The notes beneath the pieces were generated by a model. That model was not told where the DNA came from. It worked only from the letters and a program-made list of their open reading frames with translations, and ran no database searches. A DNA stretch of 64,000 nucleotides from Planctomycetota bacterium. Lineage in GTDB: Bacteria; Planctomycetota; SZUA-567; H5-PLA8. Positions 49,792 through 63,414 of this stretch are shown one piece after another (position 1 is the stretch's first letter; each line of letters opens with the position of its first letter). The translations under genes and the position numbers were made by a program. Location: contig JBAXUS010000007.1 in assembly GCA_037129555.1 (NCBI GenBank), positions 5,525-69,524 on the forward strand, written 5' to 3'.

Positions 49792-50307
49792 CGATGTTTT
49801 CCCAAGATTCCATTTCGAAATTCGAACGCACCAATATAGGGTCTGCGCTCAAAAATGAAAGCGAAAACGGACCTTATTACGGAGTTCGCGTCTAGCTCTT
49901 ATCTTAGCCACGGAGTGGCAACAAGTTCAAGTAGCCGTGGTCGCAGCCCGTACCCGGGCAAGGCCACGGATCCTTTCACGCGAGCAAATTGAGCCGCGTC
50001 AGCGGCGACACCGAATCGTCAAACGAACGCAGTTTTAGCGCCAAGTACCCAATTCCGGATCCCAAACATGCACATGTGCACGGTGCCGCCCGTTCCCCAA
50101 CCACTACCTGTAGTGGTCAAAGCCCATTTTAACATTCAAAAATGTGAAACCAACACCCATTGCACAAGAATCACATTGTGCGTCAAGCGTCGCACCCAAT
50201 CCGGCCATCAAACCAACAATCGCCTCATTCAGCTTTACATACAACGTTCCAAAACCAAAAAAGGCAACACCTTTTTAAGTAAATTTCAGCCACTCATAAC
50301 GCATCAA

Positions 50308-50373
50308 CCCGAAACCCGAAACCAGAAACCAGAAACCAGAAACCAGAAACCAGAAACTAGAAACTAGAAACCC
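50308..50373. repeat. Heptanucleotide microsatellite (CCNGAAA x about 9.4)
   Basis: cccgaaa cccgaaa ccagaaa x5 ctagaaa x2 ccc, ending 6 nt from the stop codon at 50380-50382. Confidence 0.95.
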
Positions 50374-50379
50374 AATCCG

Positions 50380-51144
50380 TTAAAAATCCGTATTCGCATC
50401 CTTCAATTCCAGTTCCTTGATCCACGCGTTCCGGTACCGAACATCGTGCCCTTCACACTGCAACTTCAACCCGCCGGGCGTATCGGTGATGCCCTTGCCG
50501 CCATCATTCCCGCCATCAATCCCCGAATTCTTTCCGCCCCATACCTGATTGATCTTCACGTTCGTGTGGACTTTGACACCATTAAAGTACATCGAGACCA
50601 AAGCCTTCTCGTCCAGCTTTCCGTCTTTAAAGCGCGCGGCGCGGAAGACGATGTCGTACGAATTCCACTTACCCAACCCCGCAAATTCCTTGTACGGCGA
50701 CTCCGTCTCATTGATCACCGCACCCATCCCATGTTTCGTCTTGTCGCCTTCACAAATCTGAATCTCGTACCGGTTCTGCAAATACACGCCACTGTTTCCG
50801 CGCGGCTTCATGACCAGAAATTCGACATGCAACCGGAAGTCGCGGTACGCCTTCTTCGTGACGATATCCGCCGAACCATACTTCCCACCCGCCGCAACCG
50901 GGTCGTCGCTCATCACGACCGTGCCCTTATCCACCGGGTCCTCGACAATTTTCCATTTAATGGGCATCGCCGACTTAAACCCAGGCCCTTCCCAATAAAT
51001 CCATTTGTCATCCAACATCTGCCGCGACCCATCAATAATCACCTCCGCGCCAGCAATCGGAACCGCCCCCAACCCCATTTCACCCGCCGAAATCAAGCTG
51101 CCAACCATCGCAACGACAGCCAAACACGTCAATTTGAAATACAT
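50380..51144 (-). CDS. DUF1080 (3-keto-disaccharide hydrolase family) secreted protein
   Basis: Signal peptide from MYFKLTCLAVVAMVGSLISA (ATG 51144 preferred over TTG 51168). YRDFRLHVEF...GNSGVYLQNRYEIQI. Confidence 0.8.
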   Translation of the reverse strand: MYFKLTCLAVVAMVGSLISAGEMGLGAVPIAGAEVIIDGSRQMLDDKWIYWEGPGFKSAMPIKWKIVEDPVDKGTVVMSDDPVAAGGKYGSADIVTKKAYRDFRLHVEFLVMKPRGNSGVYLQNRYEIQICEGDKTKHGMGAVINETESPYKEFAGLGKWNSYDIVFRAARFKDGKLDEKALVSMYFNGVKVHTNVKINQVWGGKNSGIDGGNDGGKGITDTPGGLKLQCEGHDVRYRNAWIKELELKDANTDF

Positions 51145-51203
51145 AATGAACCTTTCAATAAATCCCAATCGATTTTGAAAACCTATTTTTATTTGCTTTC
51201 TGT

Positions 51204-52729: not shown

Positions 52730-53707
52730 ATGTCGCAAGAATCAGTTCTGGTTGACGTGAAAAACGTCGTCAAAACCTACGGTCCGTTACGCGCGGTTGA
52801 CGATCTGACCTTCCAAATCAAAGCCGGCGAAATTGTCGGTCTGCTCGGACCCAACGGTGCCGGCAAATCCACGACCATGAAGATGCTGACCTGCTACTTG
52901 GAACCGACGCAAGGCAGTATCAAAGTCGCGGGAATCGATGTAAACGAAAATGCGGTCGGCGTTCGCCAACACATCGGCTACTTGCCTGAACACGCCCCCC
53001 TTTATACAGACATGCGAGTCAATGAATACCTCGATTTCGCCGGTCGAATTCGCGGACTCAGCAGCGCCAAACGCAAAGACCGCATCGATTGGGCCGTCAA
53101 AGCCTGCGGCCTCGAAGCCAAATACAAAGCCACCATTGGAACCCTCTCGCGTGGATACCGTCAGCGAACCGGCCTGGCTCAAGCCGTCTTGCACGATCCG
53201 GATTTGCTGATCCTCGACGAACCCACCAGCGGCCTCGACCCGATCCAATTGATCGAAATCCGCAAACTCATTCTCGAAATTGGTAAGAAGAAAACCGTCC
53301 TCTTTTCGACCCACATCATGCAGGAAGTCGAAGCCGTTTGTAACCGCGCGATCATTATCAATCGCGGCAAACTGGTCGCCGACGGAGCGCCGTCCGAACT
53401 CAAAGCACGCGCAGGCACCAATCAGAAAGTTCTGGCCCGAATTCGCGGTGCGCAAGCCGACGTTGAAAAGCAATTGAAGAACCTGCCGGACACGTCCTCC
53501 GTCGATGTTCATCCGATTCCCAATGGCAGTTGGCTGGAATGCACAATTAAGCTGAGTGAATCAGCAGCCGTGAATCCGATGAACACAGGCGAACAGGTCT
53601 CGAAACTCTGTAAAGATAATTCATGGGATGTACAGGAAATCAAGATCGAAGCGTTGACGTTGGAAGACACGTTCTTGAAAATGACAGGGCACGAGAAGTT
53701 AAAGTAA
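52730..53707 (+). CDS. ABC transporter ATP-binding protein (GldA-like)
   Basis: GPNGAGKSTT, LSRGYRQR, LILDEPTSGLD. AGGAG precedes the ATG. Confidence 0.88.
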   Translation: MSQESVLVDVKNVVKTYGPLRAVDDLTFQIKAGEIVGLLGPNGAGKSTTMKMLTCYLEPTQGSIKVAGIDVNENAVGVRQHIGYLPEHAPLYTDMRVNEYLDFAGRIRGLSSAKRKDRIDWAVKACGLEAKYKATIGTLSRGYRQRTGLAQAVLHDPDLLILDEPTSGLDPIQLIEIRKLILEIGKKKTVLFSTHIMQEVEAVCNRAIIINRGKLVADGAPSELKARAGTNQKVLARIRGAQADVEKQLKNLPDTSSVDVHPIPNGSWLECTIKLSESAAVNPMNTGEQVSKLCKDNSWDVQEIKIEALTLEDTFLKMTGHEKLK

Positions 53708-53795
53708 TTCCGTACCGCAGGCGTTGCGCCTGCATGTGTCAATACGAGCCGGCGTCAGGTCGGCGGTCCATTTAAACAGCAAGGATCAACGTAAT

Positions 53796-54518
53796 ATGGG
53801 AGCTACATTCAGCGTATTTAGGCGCGAATTCGCCGCGTATTTTAATACGCCCATCGGGTACGTATTCATGGCGTTCTTTCTGCTGGTCACGAAAGCGCTG
53901 TTTGTATCAACAATCTTTACCAATGGCTCCGCAGACATGCGCGGTTATTTCGGCCTCATGCCGATCTTCTTTCTGTTCTTCATCCCAGCCATCTCCATGC
54001 GCTTGTGGTCTGAAGAACGCAAACTCGGCACACTCGAATGGCTGCTCACGCTGCCTTTGAATGCGTGGCAAGCCGTCCTAGGAAAGTATCTCGCCGGACT
54101 GGCCTTCATCGCCGTCTTTTTGATGCTGACGCTCGACGTGCCTATCTTCATGTACATCTATGGTAATCCAGACATCGGACCCATTATCGGCGGTTATTTA
54201 GGTACCATGGTATTAGGTATGGTCTATTTAGCAATCGGAGCATTTGCGTCCAGCCTGACATCCGACCAAATCGTCGCATTCGTTGTCGCAGTAGCAATCA
54301 GTTTCATATTCTTTCTGATGGGCTACGGACCCGTGTTGGAATGGATGAAAGATATTTTCGGAGCCACCATTACAGCAGGTGTCCAGCAGTTTGGTATTGA
54401 GTATCATTTCGAAAGTGTTTGTCGCGGTGTTGTGGACACCCGCGATGCCCTGTACGCCCTGTCGATGTCCGGCGCGTTCCTGTTCATGAACTACTTGGTC
54501 GTCGATCACAGGAGATAA
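53796..54518 (+). CDS. ABC-2 type permease (GldF-like)
   Basis: FRREFAAYFNTPIGYVF N-terminus and 6 TM segments. ATG 53796 follows AAGGA. Confidence 0.8.
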   Translation: MGATFSVFRREFAAYFNTPIGYVFMAFFLLVTKALFVSTIFTNGSADMRGYFGLMPIFFLFFIPAISMRLWSEERKLGTLEWLLTLPLNAWQAVLGKYLAGLAFIAVFLMLTLDVPIFMYIYGNPDIGPIIGGYLGTMVLGMVYLAIGAFASSLTSDQIVAFVVAVAISFIFFLMGYGPVLEWMKDIFGATITAGVQQFGIEYHFESVCRGVVDTRDALYALSMSGAFLFMNYLVVDHRR

Positions 54519-54526
54519 TATACACC

Positions 54527-56326
54527 ATGATAATTGTCATTACTGTCGCCATTGTATTACTGGCATTGCTGGTGATTCCCTTGATTTACTCAGGCGATTT
54601 CGTCACGTTTTTTAAACGCTTCGGCCTGACCGTATTGATCGGCTTCGCAGGCATCTTGATGGCGGTGCTGATCAATTCGATCTCGCAAAAAGCATCGTTG
54701 CGCAGTGATTTGACCACGGATCAAAAATACAGCGTCAACCCCGGGTTGCTGAACGTCTCCAAGAAGCTCACCGACCAAGTCCAGATTGTCTATTATGTCT
54801 CGTCAAAGATTCAAGAATTTGTTCAAATCAAACTCGATTTGACGGATAAATTGAATGAAATCAAGAACGCCACCAACGGCATGATTGATTTCAAAATTGA
54901 AGATGTCGATCAAAAAGACGAGAAGCTGATGGCTGAATTAGGTACCAAAGGTTTCCTGCGACAAATTCAATCCAACAGTAATGACGAATTGAGCTTTTCA
55001 ATTCTGATCAGCGGGATGAAGATTACCTACAAGGACCTGGAAAGCGTCTACATTCCGCAGATTTACGCATCCAACGATCTGGAATACGCGCTAGGCGAAA
55101 AAATGATCGAACTTTACACCAAAGAAAAGCCGTCCGAAAAGCCCACGATTGCGCTGAATCTACCACCGTCAGGCCAAGGCTTTAATATGCCAGGAAAGCC
55201 GCAGCAGGGCAGCGGCTTCGAATGGATCGCCAATGGTGTCAGCGACAAGAAATTTGATGTCAAGCAGATTGACTTCAGCCAAAACCAACCCTTGCCAGAC
55301 AAGACCTCCTTACTCCTGATGGTTCGCCCCAAGCTGATGGACGAGCGTCAGAAGTATGAAGTTGCCAAGTATTTAGCCGAAGGCGGAAAAGTGCTCATGT
55401 TCGCCAGCCCGATTCGCGCCCTCGGCGACACGGTGGAACAGACTCCATACGGCCTCGAAAACTATTTCAAAGACATCGGGATCACGTTGGGATCAAGTGT
55501 TCTTGCCGACAAGTCCCACTTGAGCGTCTCCGTCAATCGCCGCACCTTTGAATTCCCTCCATACTTTATCCGCATCAAGCCGGAGAATATCGACCAGTCG
55601 ACATCATTGACTCGCTTGATGCCAGGCTTGTGTATGCCGACGCCGACTGAAATCTCATTCGATAAAGGTCTCTTGGATAAACAAAAGTTAGCACTAACAG
55701 TCCTTGCCAAGACGACTGAAAACAGCTGGGAGCTAAAAACAATCGGCACGACATTGGATAAGAACTCAATGCAGGAACCAGCCAAGAGTGGCACACAGAA
55801 AGTAGTATTCGCAATGATCAAAGGCCAATTCCCTTTCCCATACGAAGGCAAACCAGTGCCCGAATGGCCGGCGGCTGAAAAAGAGAAAGATAAGAAGGAC
55901 GATAAAGAGAAGGACAAGCCTAAATTGCCAGTGATTGCATCTGTGTCATCATCTAAAAAAGAAGGGACGCTAGTGCTGTGTTCGTCACCCGAAGCATTCT
56001 ACGGTCCTTACCTAGAAGAGCCAAATCTCCGCAACTTGATTCAAACAGGTAACGTCAGCATGCTGTTGAATGTGACTGAAAGCATGAGCTATGGCGATGA
56101 TTTGGTCAAGCTGCGCACCAAGAATTATGAAACACGCATCATTTCAAAGTTGTCAGGTGCAGAGAAAGAAAATCTCCGCCAGATGTGGAAATTGGCGTTG
56201 ATTGCTGGCGTCCCAGCACTGGTGTTGTTGTTCGCCGTGTACCGCTTCATGTGGCGTCGTTTGGATCAGTTGAATTACGAACGTAAATTTGCAGGCAGCA
56301 TTGGACCCTCGAGTTTCACTCCATGA
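54527..56326 (+). CDS. GldG-family ABC-transport auxiliary protein
   Basis: N- and C-terminal TM anchors around a large extracytoplasmic domain. ATG 54527 follows AGGAGA. Its position after the ABC-2 permease fits the family. Confidence 0.72.
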   Translation: MIIVITVAIVLLALLVIPLIYSGDFVTFFKRFGLTVLIGFAGILMAVLINSISQKASLRSDLTTDQKYSVNPGLLNVSKKLTDQVQIVYYVSSKIQEFVQIKLDLTDKLNEIKNATNGMIDFKIEDVDQKDEKLMAELGTKGFLRQIQSNSNDELSFSILISGMKITYKDLESVYIPQIYASNDLEYALGEKMIELYTKEKPSEKPTIALNLPPSGQGFNMPGKPQQGSGFEWIANGVSDKKFDVKQIDFSQNQPLPDKTSLLLMVRPKLMDERQKYEVAKYLAEGGKVLMFASPIRALGDTVEQTPYGLENYFKDIGITLGSSVLADKSHLSVSVNRRTFEFPPYFIRIKPENIDQSTSLTRLMPGLCMPTPTEISFDKGLLDKQKLALTVLAKTTENSWELKTIGTTLDKNSMQEPAKSGTQKVVFAMIKGQFPFPYEGKPVPEWPAAEKEKDKKDDKEKDKPKLPVIASVSSSKKEGTLVLCSSPEAFYGPYLEEPNLRNLIQTGNVSMLLNVTESMSYGDDLVKLRTKNYETRIISKLSGAEKENLRQMWKLALIAGVPALVLLFAVYRFMWRRLDQLNYERKFAGSIGPSSFTP

Positions 56327-57429
56327 ACAAAATAACCCTATTCCTCGTCTCCGTAATTGTTGTCTTAGCACTCTTTCTACTCAATTATTTTGTGGTAGAT
56401 AAGCATCCGCCAGCCACGTCAACAGCTGCAAGTCACGGGATGATTTTTAAAGAGCTGAACGCCGGAGCGATGACCACTATCTCGCTCAAGAAAGGCAGCG
56501 TCACGATCGAGCTTGTCCGCAAAGACAAGGAATGGCTCATGCCATTGCAGAAGAATCGTGTCGCCAAGATTGATCGCATCAATAAGCTGCTCTCCGATTT
56601 AGAAAGCACCTATTGCAGCGGTCAACGCACTGCCAAGACGCTTGAGCCCTTCGAACTGGCTCCATCAAACCGTGTCGAATTAGTCATGGAAGGTAATGGT
56701 AAGAAGACCTCTCTCTATATCGGCAAGAATATTCCCGAGACAGGCAGCTTCGTGCAGCGCGATTCGACCAGTTCAGTATTGGAAGTAGACAAGTTCCTTG
56801 CAACCAGCGCAGGTGTTCGAGAAGATAAAGGTGTCACTGTTCTCGATCCAGTCTTCTTTTACGACCTCAAGATTTTCTCGGATAGTGCCGACGACGCAAT
56901 TGATGTGGTGATCAAGAAGGGCAACGAAGTCTTCCGCGTTCAAAAAGTATTGCCCGGAAAAGGTCCTCTGGTCGCCAATCAGAAATTGGATAAAGATGAC
57001 AAGCCTGAATGGTGGATCACCGAACCCGAAGGCGGCCCAGCCGACGAATCAAAAGTACGTAACATATGCTCAACGATGCTGAATTTGACCGGCAAAGGTT
57101 ATGCAGACGAACTAGCAGAAAAGGATCGCGGATTCGACAAATCCCCAGCCAAGATAGTAATCCGCTTGAAAGACGGCGCAGAACGTTCGATGACGTTTGG
57201 TAAGATTGATAACGATGACGTCTTAGTTAGCGCAATCGGAAAGTCCGATGTCTTCAAAGTCAACAAATACGTCTTCGACACATGTACAAAGACAGACGAA
57301 ATCAAGAAGAAGGAAGAGAAGAAAGAAGAGTCAGCCGCCCCAGCACCATCGGTCACGCCGCCAGCTCCTGTCACTCCGCCCAAGATAGATGGACCGAAAG
57401 TGCCAGTCATTCCGGCACCCAAGAAATAG
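56323..57429 (+). CDS. DUF4340-like protein with a Pro-rich tail
   Basis: N-terminal TM segment. ATGA overlap with the GldG-like gene. This is the usual fourth gene of such operons. Confidence 0.6.
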   Translation: MNKITLFLVSVIVVLALFLLNYFVVDKHPPATSTAASHGMIFKELNAGAMTTISLKKGSVTIELVRKDKEWLMPLQKNRVAKIDRINKLLSDLESTYCSGQRTAKTLEPFELAPSNRVELVMEGNGKKTSLYIGKNIPETGSFVQRDSTSSVLEVDKFLATSAGVREDKGVTVLDPVFFYDLKIFSDSADDAIDVVIKKGNEVFRVQKVLPGKGPLVANQKLDKDDKPEWWITEPEGGPADESKVRNICSTMLNLTGKGYADELAEKDRGFDKSPAKIVIRLKDGAERSMTFGKIDNDDVLVSAIGKSDVFKVNKYVFDTCTKTDEIKKKEEKKEESAAPAPSVTPPAPVTPPKIDGPKVPVIPAPKK

Positions 57430-57465: not shown

Positions 57466-57499
57466 AGAAAGCCCGGCACAATCGCCGGGCTTTCTTTTT
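57466..57499 (+). terminator. Rho-independent terminator
   Basis: agaaagcccggc-acaatc-gccgggctttct followed by tttt. Confidence 0.92.
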
Positions 57500-57618: not shown

Positions 57619-58794
57619 TTAGAGCGCGAAGTGTCGAATAGCTTCAATCGCAGCTTGAGAAATCAAAACGCTAAGCATCCCGCTGACTGCAAACAGGATC
57701 ATGAATTCATAAGCAAATAGTGAACCGATAGCATTCCGCGAACATCCCATTTTGACCATCACGCTAAACTCATCGCGTCTATTTCGCAACGTCAACAACA
57801 CCACAATAGCGAGAAACGCAAACACGCCCAAAGCCGTCATTACAAAGTAAGTGTCGAATATCTTTTTGACATTAAACACCAGCTTCATCAGCCCCGCGAT
57901 CACAACGTCAGGCACGACCGCCTCGTACTCGTCGCCCGCATTAATCGCCCCCTTCAACATCGTCCCGCTTTTATCACTGCTCGGAGCCACAATGATGGCC
58001 GTCAGCGGGAATTCTTTTTCATCGCCATGAAAATGAAACGATCGAATATTCTCGCTCGTGACTTCCCGAAACTCGACAACCCCTTTTCCCAGGATCGCCT
58101 GAACTTGAGCATTCACCGCTTCAGGCGAGGGTGCCGACGGACCCGTAATCGTCGCCGCGTGTTCAATCACATTGTCATGCCCGTGCCCAAGCCCCTCCAC
58201 CGTCCAAACCGTCTTGATGTCCGTAAAAACCGCACGATCATCCGGCGTTCCGTTCGATTTCAAAATCCCCGTCACGTTCAACTTGAACGGATAGTCATGC
58301 GCGACATTGAGAAAACTCGAAATATCAGTTCGAAGAGATCCACCGGTTTTCAGATTCAATTTTTGAGCGACAACCGATCCGACAACACAATCCCCGAGTA
58401 GCATGGGCAGTTCACCATCGTCGAGTTGCAACGCGCGGAAATCGAAATACTCAGTGACCGTGCCGATGAGTGGAAACCCGCCAGCCGTGAGTCGATTCGA
58501 AATCGGCAGCACGAGCCCCGCATGTTTATCGCGCAAATCAGCAACGAGTTTCTGCGGAACCGGCGGCGGCTTGGGCCCTTCGAAATAGAGCGTGTTCAGC
58601 GTGAGTTGATGCTCGTTCGCTCGACGTCCAACCACAAGCGGCGTCGCCCGGGCACGATTGCCGTAGACCTCTTCAGCGACTCGAGCGGCGCGCGAAACGA
58701 CGATAGGGAACGCGATCACGAGCGTCAGGCCGGCGATAAGCAGCACAGAGATGGCGCGATTGTACAGAACGTGTCGCCACGCAAGAAAGAACAT
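57619..58794 (-). CDS. FtsX/MacB-type ABC permease (no adjacent ATPase)
   Basis: N-terminal TM segment, a large periplasmic domain, and a C-terminal 3-TM FtsX-like bundle. Confidence 0.75.
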   Translation of the reverse strand: MFFLAWRHVLYNRAISVLLIAGLTLVIAFPIVVSRAARVAEEVYGNRARATPLVVGRRANEHQLTLNTLYFEGPKPPPVPQKLVADLRDKHAGLVLPISNRLTAGGFPLIGTVTEYFDFRALQLDDGELPMLLGDCVVGSVVAQKLNLKTGGSLRTDISSFLNVAHDYPFKLNVTGILKSNGTPDDRAVFTDIKTVWTVEGLGHGHDNVIEHAATITGPSAPSPEAVNAQVQAILGKGVVEFREVTSENIRSFHFHGDEKEFPLTAIIVAPSSDKSGTMLKGAINAGDEYEAVVPDVVIAGLMKLVFNVKKIFDTYFVMTALGVFAFLAIVVLLTLRNRRDEFSVMVKMGCSRNAIGSLFAYEFMILFAVSGMLSVLISQAAIEAIRHFAL

Positions 58795-58960
58795 GGGAGA
58801 AATCCGCCTTTTCCGAACGCGCCCGACTGCTTCAAAGTGCGCTTGTGTATACAGGATTGAGCGTTGAATTCAAGAAAGGGCGCTTGAATTTCACGCGCTA
58901 TTCGCGAATCTTGTCCACATGATTTGTTTCGAAAGACTCCCCGCCACGCGTCGCAACATA

Positions 58961-60721
58961 ATGTATTCCAGCGTCCTGCTGACGTGTGTGTTGCTCGGAG
59001 TCCTCTCAAACGCGCGCGCGGAAGAAGGGCGGCGGATTGCCTTGTTGATCAGCGTCCGCGAGACGCGCGAACCGCGCCTGCACCGGCTTTGGTTCAGCGA
59101 CGATGATATTCGCGGCCTCGCTGCCGTGCTTCCGAACTTCGGATTTTCGCAGAACAACATCACCATTCTGACCCAGCACAATGCCTTGGACACGGACGTG
59201 CCCGACGCGATTTCGATGCGCAGCAACATCCGCGCCGGGGTGAAGAAGCTGTGCAAAGAAGCGCGCCCCGACGACACGATTCTGATCGCATTTTCCGGGC
59301 ATGGCGTTCAATTGCGCCGGGACGGTCGGATTTATCTATGCCCGCCGGAGACGACGTTGGCCGACACGTCAACGATGATCGCGCTCGACGACATCCTGCG
59401 CGAAATGGGGCCGCAATGCAAAGCGAAACTCAAGCTGATGATGGTCGATGCCTGTCGAAACGATCCAACGGATCCGCGCCCGGACATCACTCCCCGCGCA
59501 TCCGTTCCGGACCTGCCGCTGAATGTTGCGCTGTATTTGAGTTGCTCAAAAGGACAGCAATCACTTGAAACCGGGAAGGTGTTGCACGGCATATTTTTTC
59601 ATCACATCATCCAAGGATTATCAGGAGCAGCACGCGACGTCAACGGCGACATCACGCTGAAATCACTCGAAGACCTCGTTGCCCGCGAAGTGCCGATGAC
59701 GCGGTTGAAATACAGCCCGAAATCGCGAACCATTCAAACGCCGGAGTTTCACACATCGATCCGCGAACGCATTGTCCTGGGGCGCGTGGAAAACGCCGAA
59801 CCGATGCCAATCTCGATTCGCGGACAAAGCGTTTCGCCGACGGCCGCGTTGTACACGCAATGGACCACTGATTTCAACAAAGCAAATCCCGGCACAAAAG
59901 TCGATTTTCACTCCGGCGGATTTACCGGAATCAAAGCACTCAACGAACGCACGGCGCTCGTCGTTGCCACCGACTCAAAGATGTCACCGACCGAACTTTT
60001 CGGTCAACCCGAAGTCATCCAAATCCCCTCGGTCTCCACAGCCGTCGTCCCGATTTTCAATCTGCAAGGCATCCAGAATGTAACGCTCGACGCGACGACA
60101 TTCGCAGAGATTTACTTGGGTCGCATCGTGAATTGGAATGATCCAAAAATAGCAACGATCAATCCCGGAATCGTGCTTCCGGACCGCCACATCATCGTCG
60201 TTCATCCCGCTGATGAAACGCAGCCCGGTCGCATCGTTTCGGATTTTCTCCGCGATACGAATCCGGATTGGGCCGCCAAACAAAAGCCCGGACAAAAAGT
60301 CAACTGGCCGATTGGCGCTGCCGGAAATGGAACCCCCGACATCGCCCGGATTGTGAAATACGTCGAAGGAGCAATTGCCTTTGTTGAATTGGAATTTGTC
60401 GAAAAGGCGCAGAAGGCGATTCAGAAAGATAGCCCCGTCACGACGCCATCAACAATCACCATCATCACAAATAAAGTCTCCGACGAACCGCGAGACCCGT
60501 TTCCAATTCGCGGCACGACCTACCTGTCGCTCTTTCGCGATTTGAGTTACATAAAAGATCGCAAACAGGCGGAGAACGTCGTGACATTTCTCCGCTGGTG
60601 CTACTCGGATGGAATGAAGTCGGCAGGACCGACGTTTGGTGCGTTAAAAAGCGAGTACAAAAACGAAGTCGAAGAAGCGCTGAAATCTATATCCATTGAC
60701 GGCAGCAAACTCGCGCCTTGA
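58961..60721 (+). CDS. Exported caspase-family (peptidase C14) domain fused to a PstS-like periplasmic binding domain
   Basis: Signal peptide MYSSVLLTCVLLGVLSNARA. His and Cys dyad in AFSGHGV and MVDACRND. The C-terminal half aligns with E. coli PstS. Confidence 0.8.
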   Translation: MYSSVLLTCVLLGVLSNARAEEGRRIALLISVRETREPRLHRLWFSDDDIRGLAAVLPNFGFSQNNITILTQHNALDTDVPDAISMRSNIRAGVKKLCKEARPDDTILIAFSGHGVQLRRDGRIYLCPPETTLADTSTMIALDDILREMGPQCKAKLKLMMVDACRNDPTDPRPDITPRASVPDLPLNVALYLSCSKGQQSLETGKVLHGIFFHHIIQGLSGAARDVNGDITLKSLEDLVAREVPMTRLKYSPKSRTIQTPEFHTSIRERIVLGRVENAEPMPISIRGQSVSPTAALYTQWTTDFNKANPGTKVDFHSGGFTGIKALNERTALVVATDSKMSPTELFGQPEVIQIPSVSTAVVPIFNLQGIQNVTLDATTFAEIYLGRIVNWNDPKIATINPGIVLPDRHIIVVHPADETQPGRIVSDFLRDTNPDWAAKQKPGQKVNWPIGAAGNGTPDIARIVKYVEGAIAFVELEFVEKAQKAIQKDSPVTTPSTITIITNKVSDEPRDPFPIRGTTYLSLFRDLSYIKDRKQAENVVTFLRWCYSDGMKSAGPTFGALKSEYKNEVEEALKSISIDGSKLAP

Positions 60722-60736
60722 TACCAACCGTCTTCG

Positions 60737-62242
60737 TTACTCCTTACTCATCTTCTCAATGACTTTCGACGTGCTGCGTCCTTCCACCAAGGGCAACAGT
60801 GCTACGCGCCCGCCACTGGCCTCGACAATATCCCAGCCCACAACATCCTGCTTTGTTTTATAATCAGCGCCCTTACACAGCACGTGCGGCTGAATGGCTT
60901 TGATGATTTCCAACGGCGTGTCTTCTCCAAAGAGAACGACGGCGTCGACGCACGCCATGCCCGAGATCAACCGCGAGCGGTCGCCTTCCGGATTCACCGG
61001 TCGGTTCGGTCCTTTGTTCAAACGGCGGACCGAGTCGTCCGTATTGATCGCGACGATCAGCACGTCGCCGAGTTGGCGAGCGCTTTCCAGATACGTCATG
61101 TGGCCGAGATGAAGGATGTCGAAACAACCGTTAGTGAAGACAACCTTCTTATTCTCTTTGCGTAATCGCGCTGCAAATTCGGCGGCTTGCGCCACTGTCA
61201 TCAGCTTCTTTCGCGAGCTGGGATAACTGGCTCCGAGGGCTTCAAGAAGTTCGAAATCAGTGATCGTGTGCGTCGCGAATTTCGATGCCATGACCGCACC
61301 GGCCAAATTACCGAGCCAGACACTTTCGACGACGGGCACACCCGCTGCGAGCGCCAAGCACGTGGCCGCCGCGACAGCGTCTCCGGCACCGGCTTCGTCT
61401 TTCGCCACGAGGTTTCGTCCCGGGAATGATTGCGTTGATCCATCATGTTGGGCGAGCGAAATGCCGTTCGCACCGCGCGTCACGACGACGTGATCGACAT
61501 GCAAACCATCACGAAGTTGTGCGGCCATGCGTTCGCACTCGCTGTCGTCTACAATGGAATGAATCGAGAGGATCGACGAATCGTGTGCCGCAAGGAATGT
61601 CTTCGCTTCACCGAAATTGGGTTTGACGAGTGTGGCTCCGGCATATCGTTTCCAGTCTTTTCCTTTCGGATCAACCAGCACCGGTTTGCCAGCCGCTCCG
61701 CGAATTGCAGCCGCGCAGACCGCATCAGACAAAACGCCTTTGGCGTAATCGCTGAGCAAAATGGCGTCGGCATTTTTCGCTTCGGATTCAGCGAGAGCCG
61801 CGAGGGCGTCGATGGTTGTTTGAGAATACGACGCGCGTGGATCGCGATCCACGCGGACGACATGCTGGCGTCCCGACACGATACGGAGTTTCAGCGTGGT
61901 TCGGATCGACGCGTCCCGAATGATGGCATGCGTCTCGATCCTCAATCCAGTCGCACCATCAAGAAATTGCCGCGCTTCCGGATCGTCCCCGACCACGCAA
62001 CACAACGACACTTTCGCTCCGAGCGAGACGAGCAGTTTGGCGACATTGGCCGCGCCACCGAGCAGATATTCCTCGCGATCAATGTCAACAACTTGGACTG
62101 GCGCTTCAGGCGAAAGTCGCGAGGAGTGGCCATAGATGTAGCCGTCCAACATGCCGTCGCCAACGACCAGAATTCGGCGTCCGGTCATGGAGTGGAGGAG
62201 GGCCTGGACGGCATTTTGATCGGGCTCTTGGAACGATGTCAT
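60737..62242 (-). CDS. hldE: Bifunctional D-beta-D-heptose 7-phosphate kinase / D-beta-D-heptose 1-phosphate adenylyltransferase
   Basis: N-terminal ribokinase-like domain (GAGDAV). C-terminal cytidylyltransferase domain (FTNGCFDILHLGH). Confidence 0.9.
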   Translation of the reverse strand: MTSFQEPDQNAVQALLHSMTGRRILVVGDGMLDGYIYGHSSRLSPEAPVQVVDIDREEYLLGGAANVAKLLVSLGAKVSLCCVVGDDPEARQFLDGATGLRIETHAIIRDASIRTTLKLRIVSGRQHVVRVDRDPRASYSQTTIDALAALAESEAKNADAILLSDYAKGVLSDAVCAAAIRGAAGKPVLVDPKGKDWKRYAGATLVKPNFGEAKTFLAAHDSSILSIHSIVDDSECERMAAQLRDGLHVDHVVVTRGANGISLAQHDGSTQSFPGRNLVAKDEAGAGDAVAAATCLALAAGVPVVESVWLGNLAGAVMASKFATHTITDFELLEALGASYPSSRKKLMTVAQAAEFAARLRKENKKVVFTNGCFDILHLGHMTYLESARQLGDVLIVAINTDDSVRRLNKGPNRPVNPEGDRSRLISGMACVDAVVLFGEDTPLEIIKAIQPHVLCKGADYKTKQDVVGWDIVEASGGRVALLPLVEGRSTSKVIEKMSKE

Positions 62243-62300
62243 GGAGTGCTGAATCCTGATTCAGATAAAATGACTAGGCGATGCGTTGAGTTCTTATTCG

Positions 62301-63254
62301 TCACGCTCCGGCGTTGAGAATTGAGACGTAATCGGTCACGCCATCTTCGAGCGAATGGAAAGGCTGGGTCAATCCGGATGCCCGTAGCTTTTCCATTTTT
62401 GCTTCTGTGAAATACTGGTACTTGCCTTTGAGATCGTCGGGCATGGGGATGTACTGAATGTTTGCTTTCAAGTTAAGGGAGTGGAAAACAGCGGTGGACA
62501 AATCGGCGAACGAACGTGCTTTACCGGTCCCGACATTGAAGAGAGCCCCAACATTTTCGCGCGGAGCCCGAGCGCAATGCAGGACTGCTGCGACGACATC
62601 TTTGACATACACAAAATCGCGCATCTGTCCGCCGTCTGGAATGCCCGGTCGGTCCGACGCGAAAAGTTTGACCTCGCCCGTTTTCTTGATTTGATTGAAC
62701 GAATGAAACACAACGGACGCCATACGGTTCTTGTGATTTTCGTGCGGTCCATACACGTTAAAAAATTTCAGTCCCGCCCATCCGTTTGGCGTCACCGTTT
62801 GCTGCAACGCCCAGAGGTCAAAAAGTTGCTTGGATTCACCGTAAATGTTCAACGGTTTCAGCATCGCAGGATCGCCGCGGTCGTCATAACCGTTCGATCC
62901 GTCGCCATAGGTTGCGGCGCTGGACGCGTACACGAATCGGACGTTATGCGTCGTACAAAAATTCCAAAGGGTCTGCGTGTAATCGAAATTATTGCGCATC
63001 ATGAACGCGCGATCACTGCACGTCGTATCACTGCACGCGCCCATGTGGAGAATGAGCGAGACCTTCGCCGCGTTGCGATCCAGCCAAGAAAAAAGCGCGT
63101 CGCGTTCAACGAAATCGCGAATGTGCATGCGTTCCAAGTACGGTGTCAAATCGCGCGATACATCGACCGCGACGATGTCATCGCGCCCCTCCGCGTTCAA
63201 TGTGCTGACAATATTCGCGCCGATAAACCCGGCGGCGCCTGTGACCACGATCAT
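62301..63254 (-). CDS. hldD: ADP-glyceromanno-heptose 6-epimerase
   Basis: MIVVTGAAGFIGANIV, ASSAATYG, YGESK, FNVYGPHENHK, YIPMPDDLKGKYQYFT. It aligns with E. coli HldD. ATG 63254 follows GGGAGG. Confidence 0.92.
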   Translation of the reverse strand: MIVVTGAAGFIGANIVSTLNAEGRDDIVAVDVSRDLTPYLERMHIRDFVERDALFSWLDRNAAKVSLILHMGACSDTTCSDRAFMMRNNFDYTQTLWNFCTTHNVRFVYASSAATYGDGSNGYDDRGDPAMLKPLNIYGESKQLFDLWALQQTVTPNGWAGLKFFNVYGPHENHKNRMASVVFHSFNQIKKTGEVKLFASDRPGIPDGGQMRDFVYVKDVVAAVLHCARAPRENVGALFNVGTGKARSFADLSTAVFHSLNLKANIQYIPMPDDLKGKYQYFTEAKMEKLRASGLTQPFHSLEDGVTDYVSILNAGA

Positions 63255-63414
63255 GCAAGACCTCCCAAAATGCAAGCATTCATCCTACTCGGTTTGCGTC
63301 AATAAATCATCTGTGTTTGGATGGAGTGTTATCGTTTTATCGGCGTAGTCCAGGATCATGGTGTAGACGATATTCAGTGTTCGAAACATTTTTCATTGAG
63401 GAGTTGATCTGAGA

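Follow-up and report, generated by a model that had tools for sequence, protein, structure and literature searches.

A predicted exported caspase-like protease of a Planctomycetota bacterium fused to a PstS-derived binding domain with a dismantled phosphate site

A stretch of 64,000 nucleotides from a Planctomycetota bacterium (GenBank assembly GCA_037129555.1, contig JBAXUS010000007.1, positions 5,525 to 69,524 of the forward strand), called here the window in its full length, contains a gene in which a caspase-like protease domain is followed by a type II periplasmic-binding protein (PBP) domain derived from the phosphate-binding protein PstS. Seven of the eight positions that hold phosphate in PstS are changed in this domain, and the residue comparisons indicate that it would not be able to bind phosphate in the way PstS does. 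The explanation that we favor, with a probability of roughly 0.45, is that the PstS-derived module has become a phosphate-independent recognition or regulatory module of an exported protease. The protease family, the sensor fold, and the architecture itself were already known, the last from databases and from one survey table. New are the independently evolved Planctomycetota clade with an eroded ligand site, the convergence of the fusion, and a large clade of fusions in which the phosphate site is canonical.

The fusion gene and its product

The gene and its parts are listed below, with residues numbered from the start of the precursor of 586 amino acids (aa) and with the evidence used for each in brackets.

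58961..60721, + strand: fusion gene, stop codon included, for a 586-aa precursor with signal peptide, Peptidase_C14 domain and PstS-derived domain (open reading frame (ORF) list, Pfam, NCBIfam, identical public protein P0001)
58919..58960, + strand: possible 14-codon N-terminal extension from an alternative ATG, which would add a positively charged Arg-Arg n-region, MICFERLPATRRNI, to the signal peptide (ORF list, sequence)
58961..59026, + strand: signal peptide, residues 1-22, MYSSVLLTCVLLGVLSNARA, with EE following the predicted cleavage site (read by eye from the sequence)
59030..59764, + strand: caspase/metacaspase-like protease domain, residues 24-268 (Pfam PF00656, dyad conservation, PDB profile search, Foldseek)
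59765..59809, + strand: short interdomain linker, residues about 269-283 (secondary structure in an AlphaFold2 (AF2) model, alignments)
59810..60718, + strand: PstS-derived type II periplasmic-binding domain with a dismantled phosphate site, residues about 284-586 (PF12849, TIGR00975, PDB, Foldseek, residue mapping)

The 586-aa product is identical to P0001 in the public protein collection. The full ORF that contains the gene runs from 58919 to 60721 (+ strand). The start at 58961 agrees with the N-termini of the homologues in the alignment, and the public gene calls together with this alignment favor it as the probable start over 58919. A preliminary description of the locus, made from the sequence alone, had quoted the motifs ILIAFSGHGV, KLMMVDACRND, GQSVSP, HSGGFTG, ATDSK and HPADETQPG, and all of them are found in the sequence.

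A PstS fold with changed phosphate ligands

Sequence and structure comparisons both assigned the C-terminal half to PstS. Pfam matched PF12849 (PBP_like_2) to residues 286-550 with an E-value of 2.3e-18 and 67.4 bits against a cutoff of 27. All PDB sequence matches at E < 0.001 were PstS proteins (5wnn, 2z22, 1ixh and others, with E about 1e-33), and they aligned residues 285-576 to PstS 3-310 at about 30% identity. The NCBIfam PstS model TIGR00975 matched at E 2.1e-48 but its score of 165.1 bits lay under the 205-bit cutoff, and the PstS equivalog model NF008171 gave 130.3 bits, under its cutoff of 339. An AF2 model built from a 70-sequence alignment had a predicted local distance difference test score (pLDDT) of 89.7 and a predicted template modeling score (pTM) of 0.79, whereas five family sequences alone gave a pLDDT of only 52. 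Foldseek, which the preliminary description had proposed to run on each half of the protein, was applied to this model and returned PstS for the C-terminal half with a template modeling (TM) score of 0.70 and the paracaspase MALT1 (3v4o) for the caspase half with a TM score of 0.78 and E 2.3e-14. The same description had called the binding fold complete and alignable along its length with E. coli PstS. The PstS fold stands, but it is not quite complete, as about 17-20 PstS residues (E. coli roughly 205-245) and one residue of the Ser38 loop are deleted in the window domain.

The phosphate ligands of the PstS structure of Luecke and Quiocho, which are Thr10, Phe11 (NH), Ser38, Asp56, Arg135, Ser139, Gly140 (NH) and Thr141 in E. 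coli numbering, were mapped onto the window domain by alignment. They correspond to Ser292, Pro293, Gly320, Asp338, Pro416, Thr420, Gln421 and Pro422, respectively. Asp137 is kept as Asp418, and Gly138 is replaced by Glu419. Only one of the eight ligand positions (Asp56) is therefore unchanged, and two of the replacements, T10S and S139T, are conservative. The weightiest losses are those of the only arginine, of Ser38 and of Thr141, together with the occupation of two backbone-NH donor positions by Pro and the appearance of a new carboxylate beside the helix N-terminus.

In the 54 stand-alone PstS relatives most similar to the domain, these eight columns are 94-100% conserved, and Ser38 and Arg135 are present in all 54. 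The loss of phosphate ligands is for this reason far beyond background divergence, and the preliminary description, which had read this loss from a few motifs, is borne out on this point. Because Arg135, Ser38 and Thr141 are gone, two NH-donor positions are Pro and an extra carboxylate stands at position 138, the window domain is predicted to be incapable of PstS-like phosphate binding. None of pstC, pstA, pstB and phoU was found among the genes flanking the fusion gene. Since the protein is without the phosphate ligands and has no pst transporter genes nearby, the name "phosphate transport system substrate-binding protein" is very likely wrong for it.

Decay of the ligand site in this PstS lineage is not confined to caspase fusions, as the stand-alone 342-aa PstS-like protein P0079 is degenerate too, with P, Y, K, G, R, S, S and A at the eight ligand positions and with Asp56 changed to Gly. 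PstS domains have evidently been recruited into several multi-domain exported proteins. P0068, P0069, P0072, P0073, P0081 and P0088 are very long (700-2386 aa) with two to five matched stretches, and the three of them that were scanned (P0069, P0072 and P0073) contain two tandem PstS-type domains each. In P0126, PstS is fused to copper-amine-oxidase N-terminal domains.

Graded erosion of the site in a six-member clade

Homologues were searched for among 5.8 billion proteins, in an exhaustive hidden Markov model search of 1.84 billion cluster representatives, in a metagenome scan, and in a scan of 185,579 bacterial and archaeal species represented by one genome each. Over all searches, the clade of the window protein comprises six members: the window protein itself (P0001), P0002 (55% identity), P0003 (45%), P0004 (42%), P0005 (43%) and a copy at the locus L029. 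The L029 copy is split by frameshifts into P0067 and P0071, with a 268-aa caspase ORF and a 313-aa PBP ORF in overlapping frames. These frameshifts may be an assembly error or may mark a real pseudogene, and the name of the record, contig_124244_np1212, suggests a long-read assembly. The metagenome scan with the family motifs gave 67 caspase relatives and no further fusion. A word-indexed search for homologues of the caspase half by itself gave four proteins only, which added no depth to the alignment. Apart from L002 and L013, which belong to metagenome-assembled genomes named "uncultured Alcaligenaceae bacterium," every related genome locus of the species scan is Planctomycetota-named. The sub-clade is marked by the N-terminal motif (D/E)(P/T)RLH(R/Q)LWF.

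The phosphate site has been lost to different degrees in these proteins. P0003 and P0004 read GAGATL...VSD...HRSDDTSTS and keep Thr10, Asp56, Arg135, Asp137 and Thr141. Arg135 is also kept in P0071, whereas P0002 has Pro at this position, as the window protein does, and P0005 has Leu; position 135 reads P, P, R, R, L and R across the six members. P0005 has L, N, P, H and L at positions 135-140. Ser38 is absent from all core members, and Asp or Glu is found at position 138 in five of the six. The window protein and P0002 have a similar remodeled site (S/S, G/G, D/D, P/P, D/D, E/D, T/S and Q/N).

Across the five independent lineages, the mean pairwise identity was 0.36 at the eight ligand positions and 0.45 over the whole domain, and 25% of random eight-column sets were as low as the ligand positions. 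These positions differ from lineage to lineage and show no more conservation than the domain as a whole, which argues against a single new ligand site common to the lineages and against a conserved replacement site in the six-member clade. Over the same five lineages, 56 of the 290 columns of the PBP domain are invariant. In the comparison of P0003 with P0004, the ratio of nonsynonymous to synonymous substitution rates (dN/dS) was 0.17 in the PBP half and 0.09 in the caspase half. Of the PBP halves, that of the window protein has moved farthest from stand-alone PstS (34-36% identity, compared to 41-46% for P0003), whereas divergence is about the same among the caspase halves.

A protease domain of the metacaspase and paracaspase type

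The preliminary description had recognized a peptidase C14 domain with a His/Cys dyad, and three kinds of evidence agree with it. First, Pfam matched PF00656 (Peptidase_C14) to residues 24-268 with E 9.9e-16 and 58.6 bits against a cutoff of 21.4. Second, the catalytic His114 lies in SGHGV and Cys165 in VDACRND, with Asp163 two residues before Cys165, and His114, Cys165, Asp163 and Arg166 are invariant in all 15 relatives of the planctomycete clade. Third, the structure comparison returned MALT1, as given above, and the AF2 model has pLDDT values above 90 across most of residues 25-275, which places the domain in the caspase-hemoglobinase fold. A profile of the N-terminal domain searched against the PDB matched the metacaspases Yca1 (7.7e-12), TbMCA2 and AtMC4/9 as well as MALT1, with E-values from 7.7e-12 to 1e-3. 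The NCBIfam model "caspase, EACC1-associated" gave 51 bits, under its 140-bit cutoff.

In metacaspases and the paracaspase, an Asp two residues before the catalytic Cys lines the S1 pocket that selects Arg or Lys. Because Asp163 sits two residues before Cys165, the domain is predicted to share this P1 specificity, and it is probably an active C14 (clan CD) protease of the metacaspase/paracaspase type that cleaves after Arg or Lys. To our knowledge, bacterial caspase homologues are abundant, the trigger or the substrate is known for almost none of them, and the exported ones are essentially unstudied.

A role as an anti-phage caspase effector was considered and rejected. The sole PADLOC match was partial (PDLC02987, 35 bits, 85 of 453 positions), a signal peptide is present and the neighbors are housekeeping genes, and for these reasons the protein does not fit a defense effector.

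The N-terminus points to export by the Sec route. The signal peptide ends in a cleavage motif of the A-x-A type (ARA, followed by EE) and has no convincing lipobox, equivalent hydrophobic N-termini that end in ARS or ARA are found in the aligned homologues, and the AF2 model has a low-confidence N-terminal helix at residues 1-18. The export proposed in the preliminary description is thus supported by the predicted signal peptides of the window protein and its homologues. A lipoprotein with Cys at residue 9 (LLTC) was ruled out, as positions -1 and -2 misfit a lipobox.

Origin of the two halves

The nearest relatives of the PBP half are stand-alone proteins such as P0076, which shows the C-terminal signature of the clade (DLSYLKD...W-C...K-T-I-V-F-D-G) together with canonical ligands at all eight positions. 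Many secreted caspase-like proteins with GHG and DACRNDP motifs share 33-40% identity with the caspase half. The C-terminal modules of these caspase paralogues are FGE-sulfatase in most cases, and TPR, NosD/beta-helix, EF-hand or PDZ/Sel1 in others. Because the paralogues carry other C-terminal modules, the window protein is, as far as its domain composition tells, a module-swap variant within a modular family of secreted caspases. The metacaspase-FGE-sulfatase architecture was reported in a 2012 survey that covered 671 prokaryotic metacaspases and in which a PBP partner goes unmentioned (PMC3501461).

A second fusion clade with a canonical phosphate site

Among the matches of the exhaustive search were further proteins with Peptidase_C14 and PBP_like_2 domains, namely P0106, P0095, P0115, P0137 (the last by alignment only) and the isolated P0144. 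A profile search seeded with P0106, P0095, P0115 and P0137 returned at least 50 clusters at 90% identity, some of them with hundreds of sequences. These proteins are of a proteobacterial type (e.g., P0106 and P0218-P0261), have a signal peptide and are about 590-700 aa long. The dyad and Asp163 are invariant in all 49 sequences that bear these residues. The phosphate site is canonical, with Ser38, Asp56, Arg135 and Asp137 in all 50 sequences, Ser139 in 48 of 50 and Thr141 in 49 of 50. The automatic name given to these proteins by the Joint Genome Institute (JGI) is "phosphate transport system substrate-binding protein." Three of their gene contexts were examined, and neither a pst operon nor a common partner gene was found in them.

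The PstS half of the second clade has 48-51% identity with E. coli PstS and 54-61% with PstS of Bradyrhizobiaceae, but only about 30% with the PstS-derived half of the window protein; the caspase half is 22-27% identical to that of the window protein. In both clades, each half resembles stand-alone or differently fused proteins of the same lineage more closely than it resembles its counterpart in the other clade. The architecture is thus convergent, without common descent of the two clades, and the fusion of a caspase to PstS arose at least twice, and probably three times if P0144 is counted. In total, the architecture is represented by at least 50 clusters of the second clade in addition to the window protein, P0002-P0005, the L029 copy and P0144.

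Literature searches found no functional study of a caspase-PstS fusion; the sole trace was one table entry, "Metacaspase|PBP_like_2," in a 2016 survey of the Baltic Sea (PMC4933709). The preliminary description had named a known family with a defined role as a finding that would speak against its view, and what was found is an architecture that is catalogued and has no defined role in the literature searched.

The favored explanation and its alternatives

The favored explanation can be put as a sequence of steps. In the Planctomycetota family, a constant unit of signal peptide and caspase carries a swappable C-terminal binding module, and a PstS of the planctomycete-type stand-alone phosphate-binding proteins would have been recruited as such a module into a small sub-clade. 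Judging from the site as the second clade still presents it, and as it is partly visible in P0003 and P0004, the ancestral fused PstS probably bound phosphate. The oxyanion site would then have been taken apart in the lineage of the window protein, with loss of PstS-like phosphate binding. A folded and selected domain would persist, and it may position or regulate the protease by recognizing a target or a partner rather than one small ligand common to the clade. Its role would thus resemble the one that can be imagined for the FGE-sulfatase, TPR and beta-helix modules of the paralogues, i.e., recognition, positioning, or regulation.

Several observations weigh against this explanation. First, every fusion member has Asp56 (Asp338 of the window protein), including those that have lost the remainder of the site, and most members also retain Asp137 and an acidic residue at position 138; these kept residues hint that the cleft may still be used. 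Second, the clade has conserved residues of its own, R330, R517, R425 and T/S322, which could form a relocated binding site. Third, the clade represents only about five independent lineages, and its conservation statistics are correspondingly weak. Finally, export rests on a signal peptide judged by eye, the n-region of which is without positive charge unless the start at 58919 is used.

The view of the preliminary description, that the PstS-derived cleft has been retuned to another small ligand and that its Venus-flytrap closure switches or targets the protease, is possible, if doubtful on the present evidence. It draws on the first of these observations, since Asp56 is invariant in 7 of 7 planctomycete-type members and 50 of 50 second-clade sequences and Gly138 is replaced by Asp or Glu in most of the core, and on the similarity of the remodeled sites in P0001 and P0002. 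The domain is also predicted to be folded and is under purifying selection in the sister lineage, and the fusion of ligand-sensing binding-protein domains to effector domains is a well-known design. As the cleft is without Arg and has three carboxylates (D338, D418 and E419), a ligand of this kind would carry either no charge or a positive one, as an amine or a guanidinium group does, and would not be an anion. However, the former ligand positions vary from lineage to lineage without rising above the conservation of the domain; P0005 has L, N, P, H and L in the former site; the family contexts have no transporter, regulator or metabolic gene as a constant neighbor; and the sequence itself names no ligand.

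Residual binding of phosphate or another oxyanion, with Arg425, Arg517 or Arg330 and Thr322 compensating for the lost ligands, would make the protein a phosphate-responsive periplasmic protease comparable to the second clade, which we regard as improbable. An Arg at PstS position 143 (R425) is found in P0001-P0004, the clade has R330, R517 and S/T322 at places where canonical PstS has other, conserved residues, Thr10 and Ser139 are conservatively replaced by Ser292 and Thr420, and both the sister members and the second clade look phosphate-competent. Against this stand the Pro residues at positions 11 and 141, which supply NH donors in PstS, the disappearance of Ser38 together with a deletion in its loop, and the replacement by Pro of an Arg135 that none of the 54 stand-alone relatives lacks. 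Furthermore, Glu419 adds negative charge beside the N-terminus of the anion-binding helix, and the NCBIfam PstS score is under its cutoff.

It is likewise of low probability that the PBP domain is a decaying relic, limited in function to folding or stability, and that the protein is simply a secreted caspase-like protease. The greater divergence of the window PBP half at similar divergence of the caspase halves, the lack of constraint at the ligand positions and the split L029 member would all fit decay. On the other side, the frame has stayed open over 300 codons in five lineages, the invariant columns, the confident AF2 fold and the dN/dS of 0.17 in the sister lineage speak for a maintained domain, and the L029 frameshifts could be assembly errors.

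Gene neighborhood

The features around the fusion gene are as follows.

57619-58794, - strand: gene for an FtsX-like membrane protein with no adjacent ATPase (Pfam FtsX, 25.3 bits against a cutoff of 25.5, profile positions 4-73 of 120)
52730-57429, + strand: four-gene cluster resembling a gliding-motility ABC system, with a GldA-like ATPase (338 bits, under the cutoff), a GldF-like permease, a GldG-like ABC_transp_aux protein and a DUF4340 protein
57466-57495: 12-bp GC-rich hairpin flanked by T and A runs, between the convergent DUF4340 and FtsX-like genes, resembling a bidirectional terminator
58795..58960: intergenic region of 166 nt, presumed promoter or 5' region of the fusion gene (repeat search)
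60737-63275, - strand: hldE (bifunctional heptose kinase/adenylyltransferase) and hldD (ADP-glyceromanno-heptose 6-epimerase, above the TIGR02197 cutoff), convergent with the fusion gene and directly downstream of it

The fusion gene is solitary in the window, and the 166-nt gap between it and the divergent FtsX-like gene is as the preliminary description had given it. In the FtsX-like protein, an N-terminal transmembrane segment is accompanied by an FtsX domain and a large extracytoplasmic loop, and the protein ends after its third transmembrane segment. No frameshifted continuation with a fourth segment was found downstream in another frame, and the protein may be a truncated or atypical member of the MacB/FtsX family. 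The sole ABC ATPase near it belongs to the GldA/F/G-like operon, the GC content of which (0.47-0.48) lies below the 0.54-0.57 of most of the window. From the adjacency of the two genes, the preliminary description had drawn a speculative link to FtsEX-type control of periplasmic hydrolases and had proposed to examine co-occurrence. A tblastn search for the window FtsX-like protein in all fetched loci gave no match at the other family loci or at 96 related loci, and homologues of the genes neighboring the window fusion were found beside no other family member. As the neighborhoods differ in every lineage and the FtsX-like gene stands only beside the window fusion, the analogy is unsupported. 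Control of the protease by the neighboring permease through FtsEX-like transmembrane activation is accordingly very unlikely: a divergent pair 166 nt apart, with an extracytoplasmic loop in the neighbor, is outweighed by the unrelated contexts of the other members, a match to only 70 of 120 profile positions in a protein that ends early, an ABC ATPase that is committed to another operon, and the weakness of divergent orientation as evidence.

In P0003 and P0004, the fusion gene is the last of a co-directional cluster of five genes (L025 3465-9812 and L001 4992-11812), which encode, in order, an NMT1/SsuA-type binding protein fused to OmpA, a BPD_transp_1 permease, an ABC ATPase, a conserved 295-aa protein without a family match, and the fusion protein. 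A binding protein with an OmpA peptidoglycan-binding domain, i.e., a wall tether, is unusual in itself. At L029 2035-7851, the split fusion directly follows a gene for a 1309-aa Peptidase_C25 protein (gingipain family, also clan CD). P0002 and P0005 have yet other neighbors, different in each case.

Downstream of the window fusion, 16 nt separate its stop codon from that of hldE. The hldE/hldD pair represents genes for the heptose of the lipopolysaccharide inner core in a planctomycete. Upstream, the intergenic region holds two copies of the direct repeat AAAG(T/G)GCGCTTG (58834-58845 and 58875-58886, 41 nt apart) and a 19-nt imperfect inverted repeat (58856-58901) around the palindrome TTGAATTCAA, and these repeats may form an operator. 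No riboswitch or other known RNA (Rfam, E up to 1) and no sigma-70-like promoter consensus were found in this 5' region. Farther away, an AACCAGA tandem repeat of 9.6 copies (95% matches) lies at 50306-50372, just downstream of the gene for a secreted 262-aa protein (50380-51168, - strand), and the GC skew across the 50-52 kb block is unusually negative at -0.345.

Significance

The joining of a caspase and PstS on at least two independent occasions suggests that a nutrient-binding module and a caspase-type periplasmic protease are genuinely coupled in function. The clade with the canonical site offers a directly testable hypothesis of phosphate-dependent periplasmic proteolysis. The clade of the window protein, with its graded loss of Arg135, Ser38 and Thr141, would form a natural "ligand-dead" series, which could show what the binding domain contributes beyond phosphate sensing.

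A broader proposal, which we consider unlikely, is that the caspase-PstS fusions are convergent periplasmic proteases gated by the open or closed state of the binding domain. Phosphate scarcity, and with it apo-PstS, would switch proteolysis on or off in the canonical clade, and the cleft of the window protein would have been rewired to a cationic group, its pocket serving as an exosite or an autoinhibitory latch. If this were true, phosphate starvation would be linked directly to an extracytoplasmic caspase-type protease. The cationic partner of the acidic, Arg-free cleft of the window protein (Asp338, Asp418 and Glu419) could then be a free amine, or else the side chain of an Arg or Lys that belongs either to a substrate or to the linker of the protein itself.

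Comparison with known systems

The similarity of the window locus to FtsEX-regulated hydrolases (FtsEX with EnvC, PcsB or RipC) is limited to a periplasmic hydrolase gene beside a gene of the FtsX family. Unlike those systems, the locus has no FtsE ATPase, a partial FtsX domain, no coiled-coil adaptor and an adjacency that is not conserved in relatives.

Compared to metacaspases, orthocaspases and MALT1 (Yca1 4f6o, TbMCA2 4af8, AtMC4 6w8s and MALT1 3v4o), the window protein shares the caspase-hemoglobinase fold, the dyad and the Asp two residues before the Cys. It differs from them in its predicted export and in having no recognizable prodomain, death domain, Ig domain or Ca-binding features of the p10 region. 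The signal peptide and caspase unit, the motifs and the dyad are common to the secreted Planctomycetota caspases with other modules, and the difference lies in the C-terminal module, a PstS-derived PBP instead of FGE-sulfatase, TPR and the like.

Compared to E. coli PstS (PDB 1ixh/2abh), the window domain has the same type II fold over nearly the whole length, Asp56 and Asp137, and fold-determining residues such as W392/D394 in the "WNDP" motif and the "NPG" motif. On the other hand, it is fused behind a protease, is encoded outside a pst operon, is changed at seven of eight ligand positions, carries two deletions and scores below the TIGR00975 cutoff. The closest counterpart in design is the second clade, which has the same three-part architecture, an intact dyad, a similar size and orphan genes outside pst operons. 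It differs from the window protein in its independent origin and in a phosphate site that has stayed canonical.

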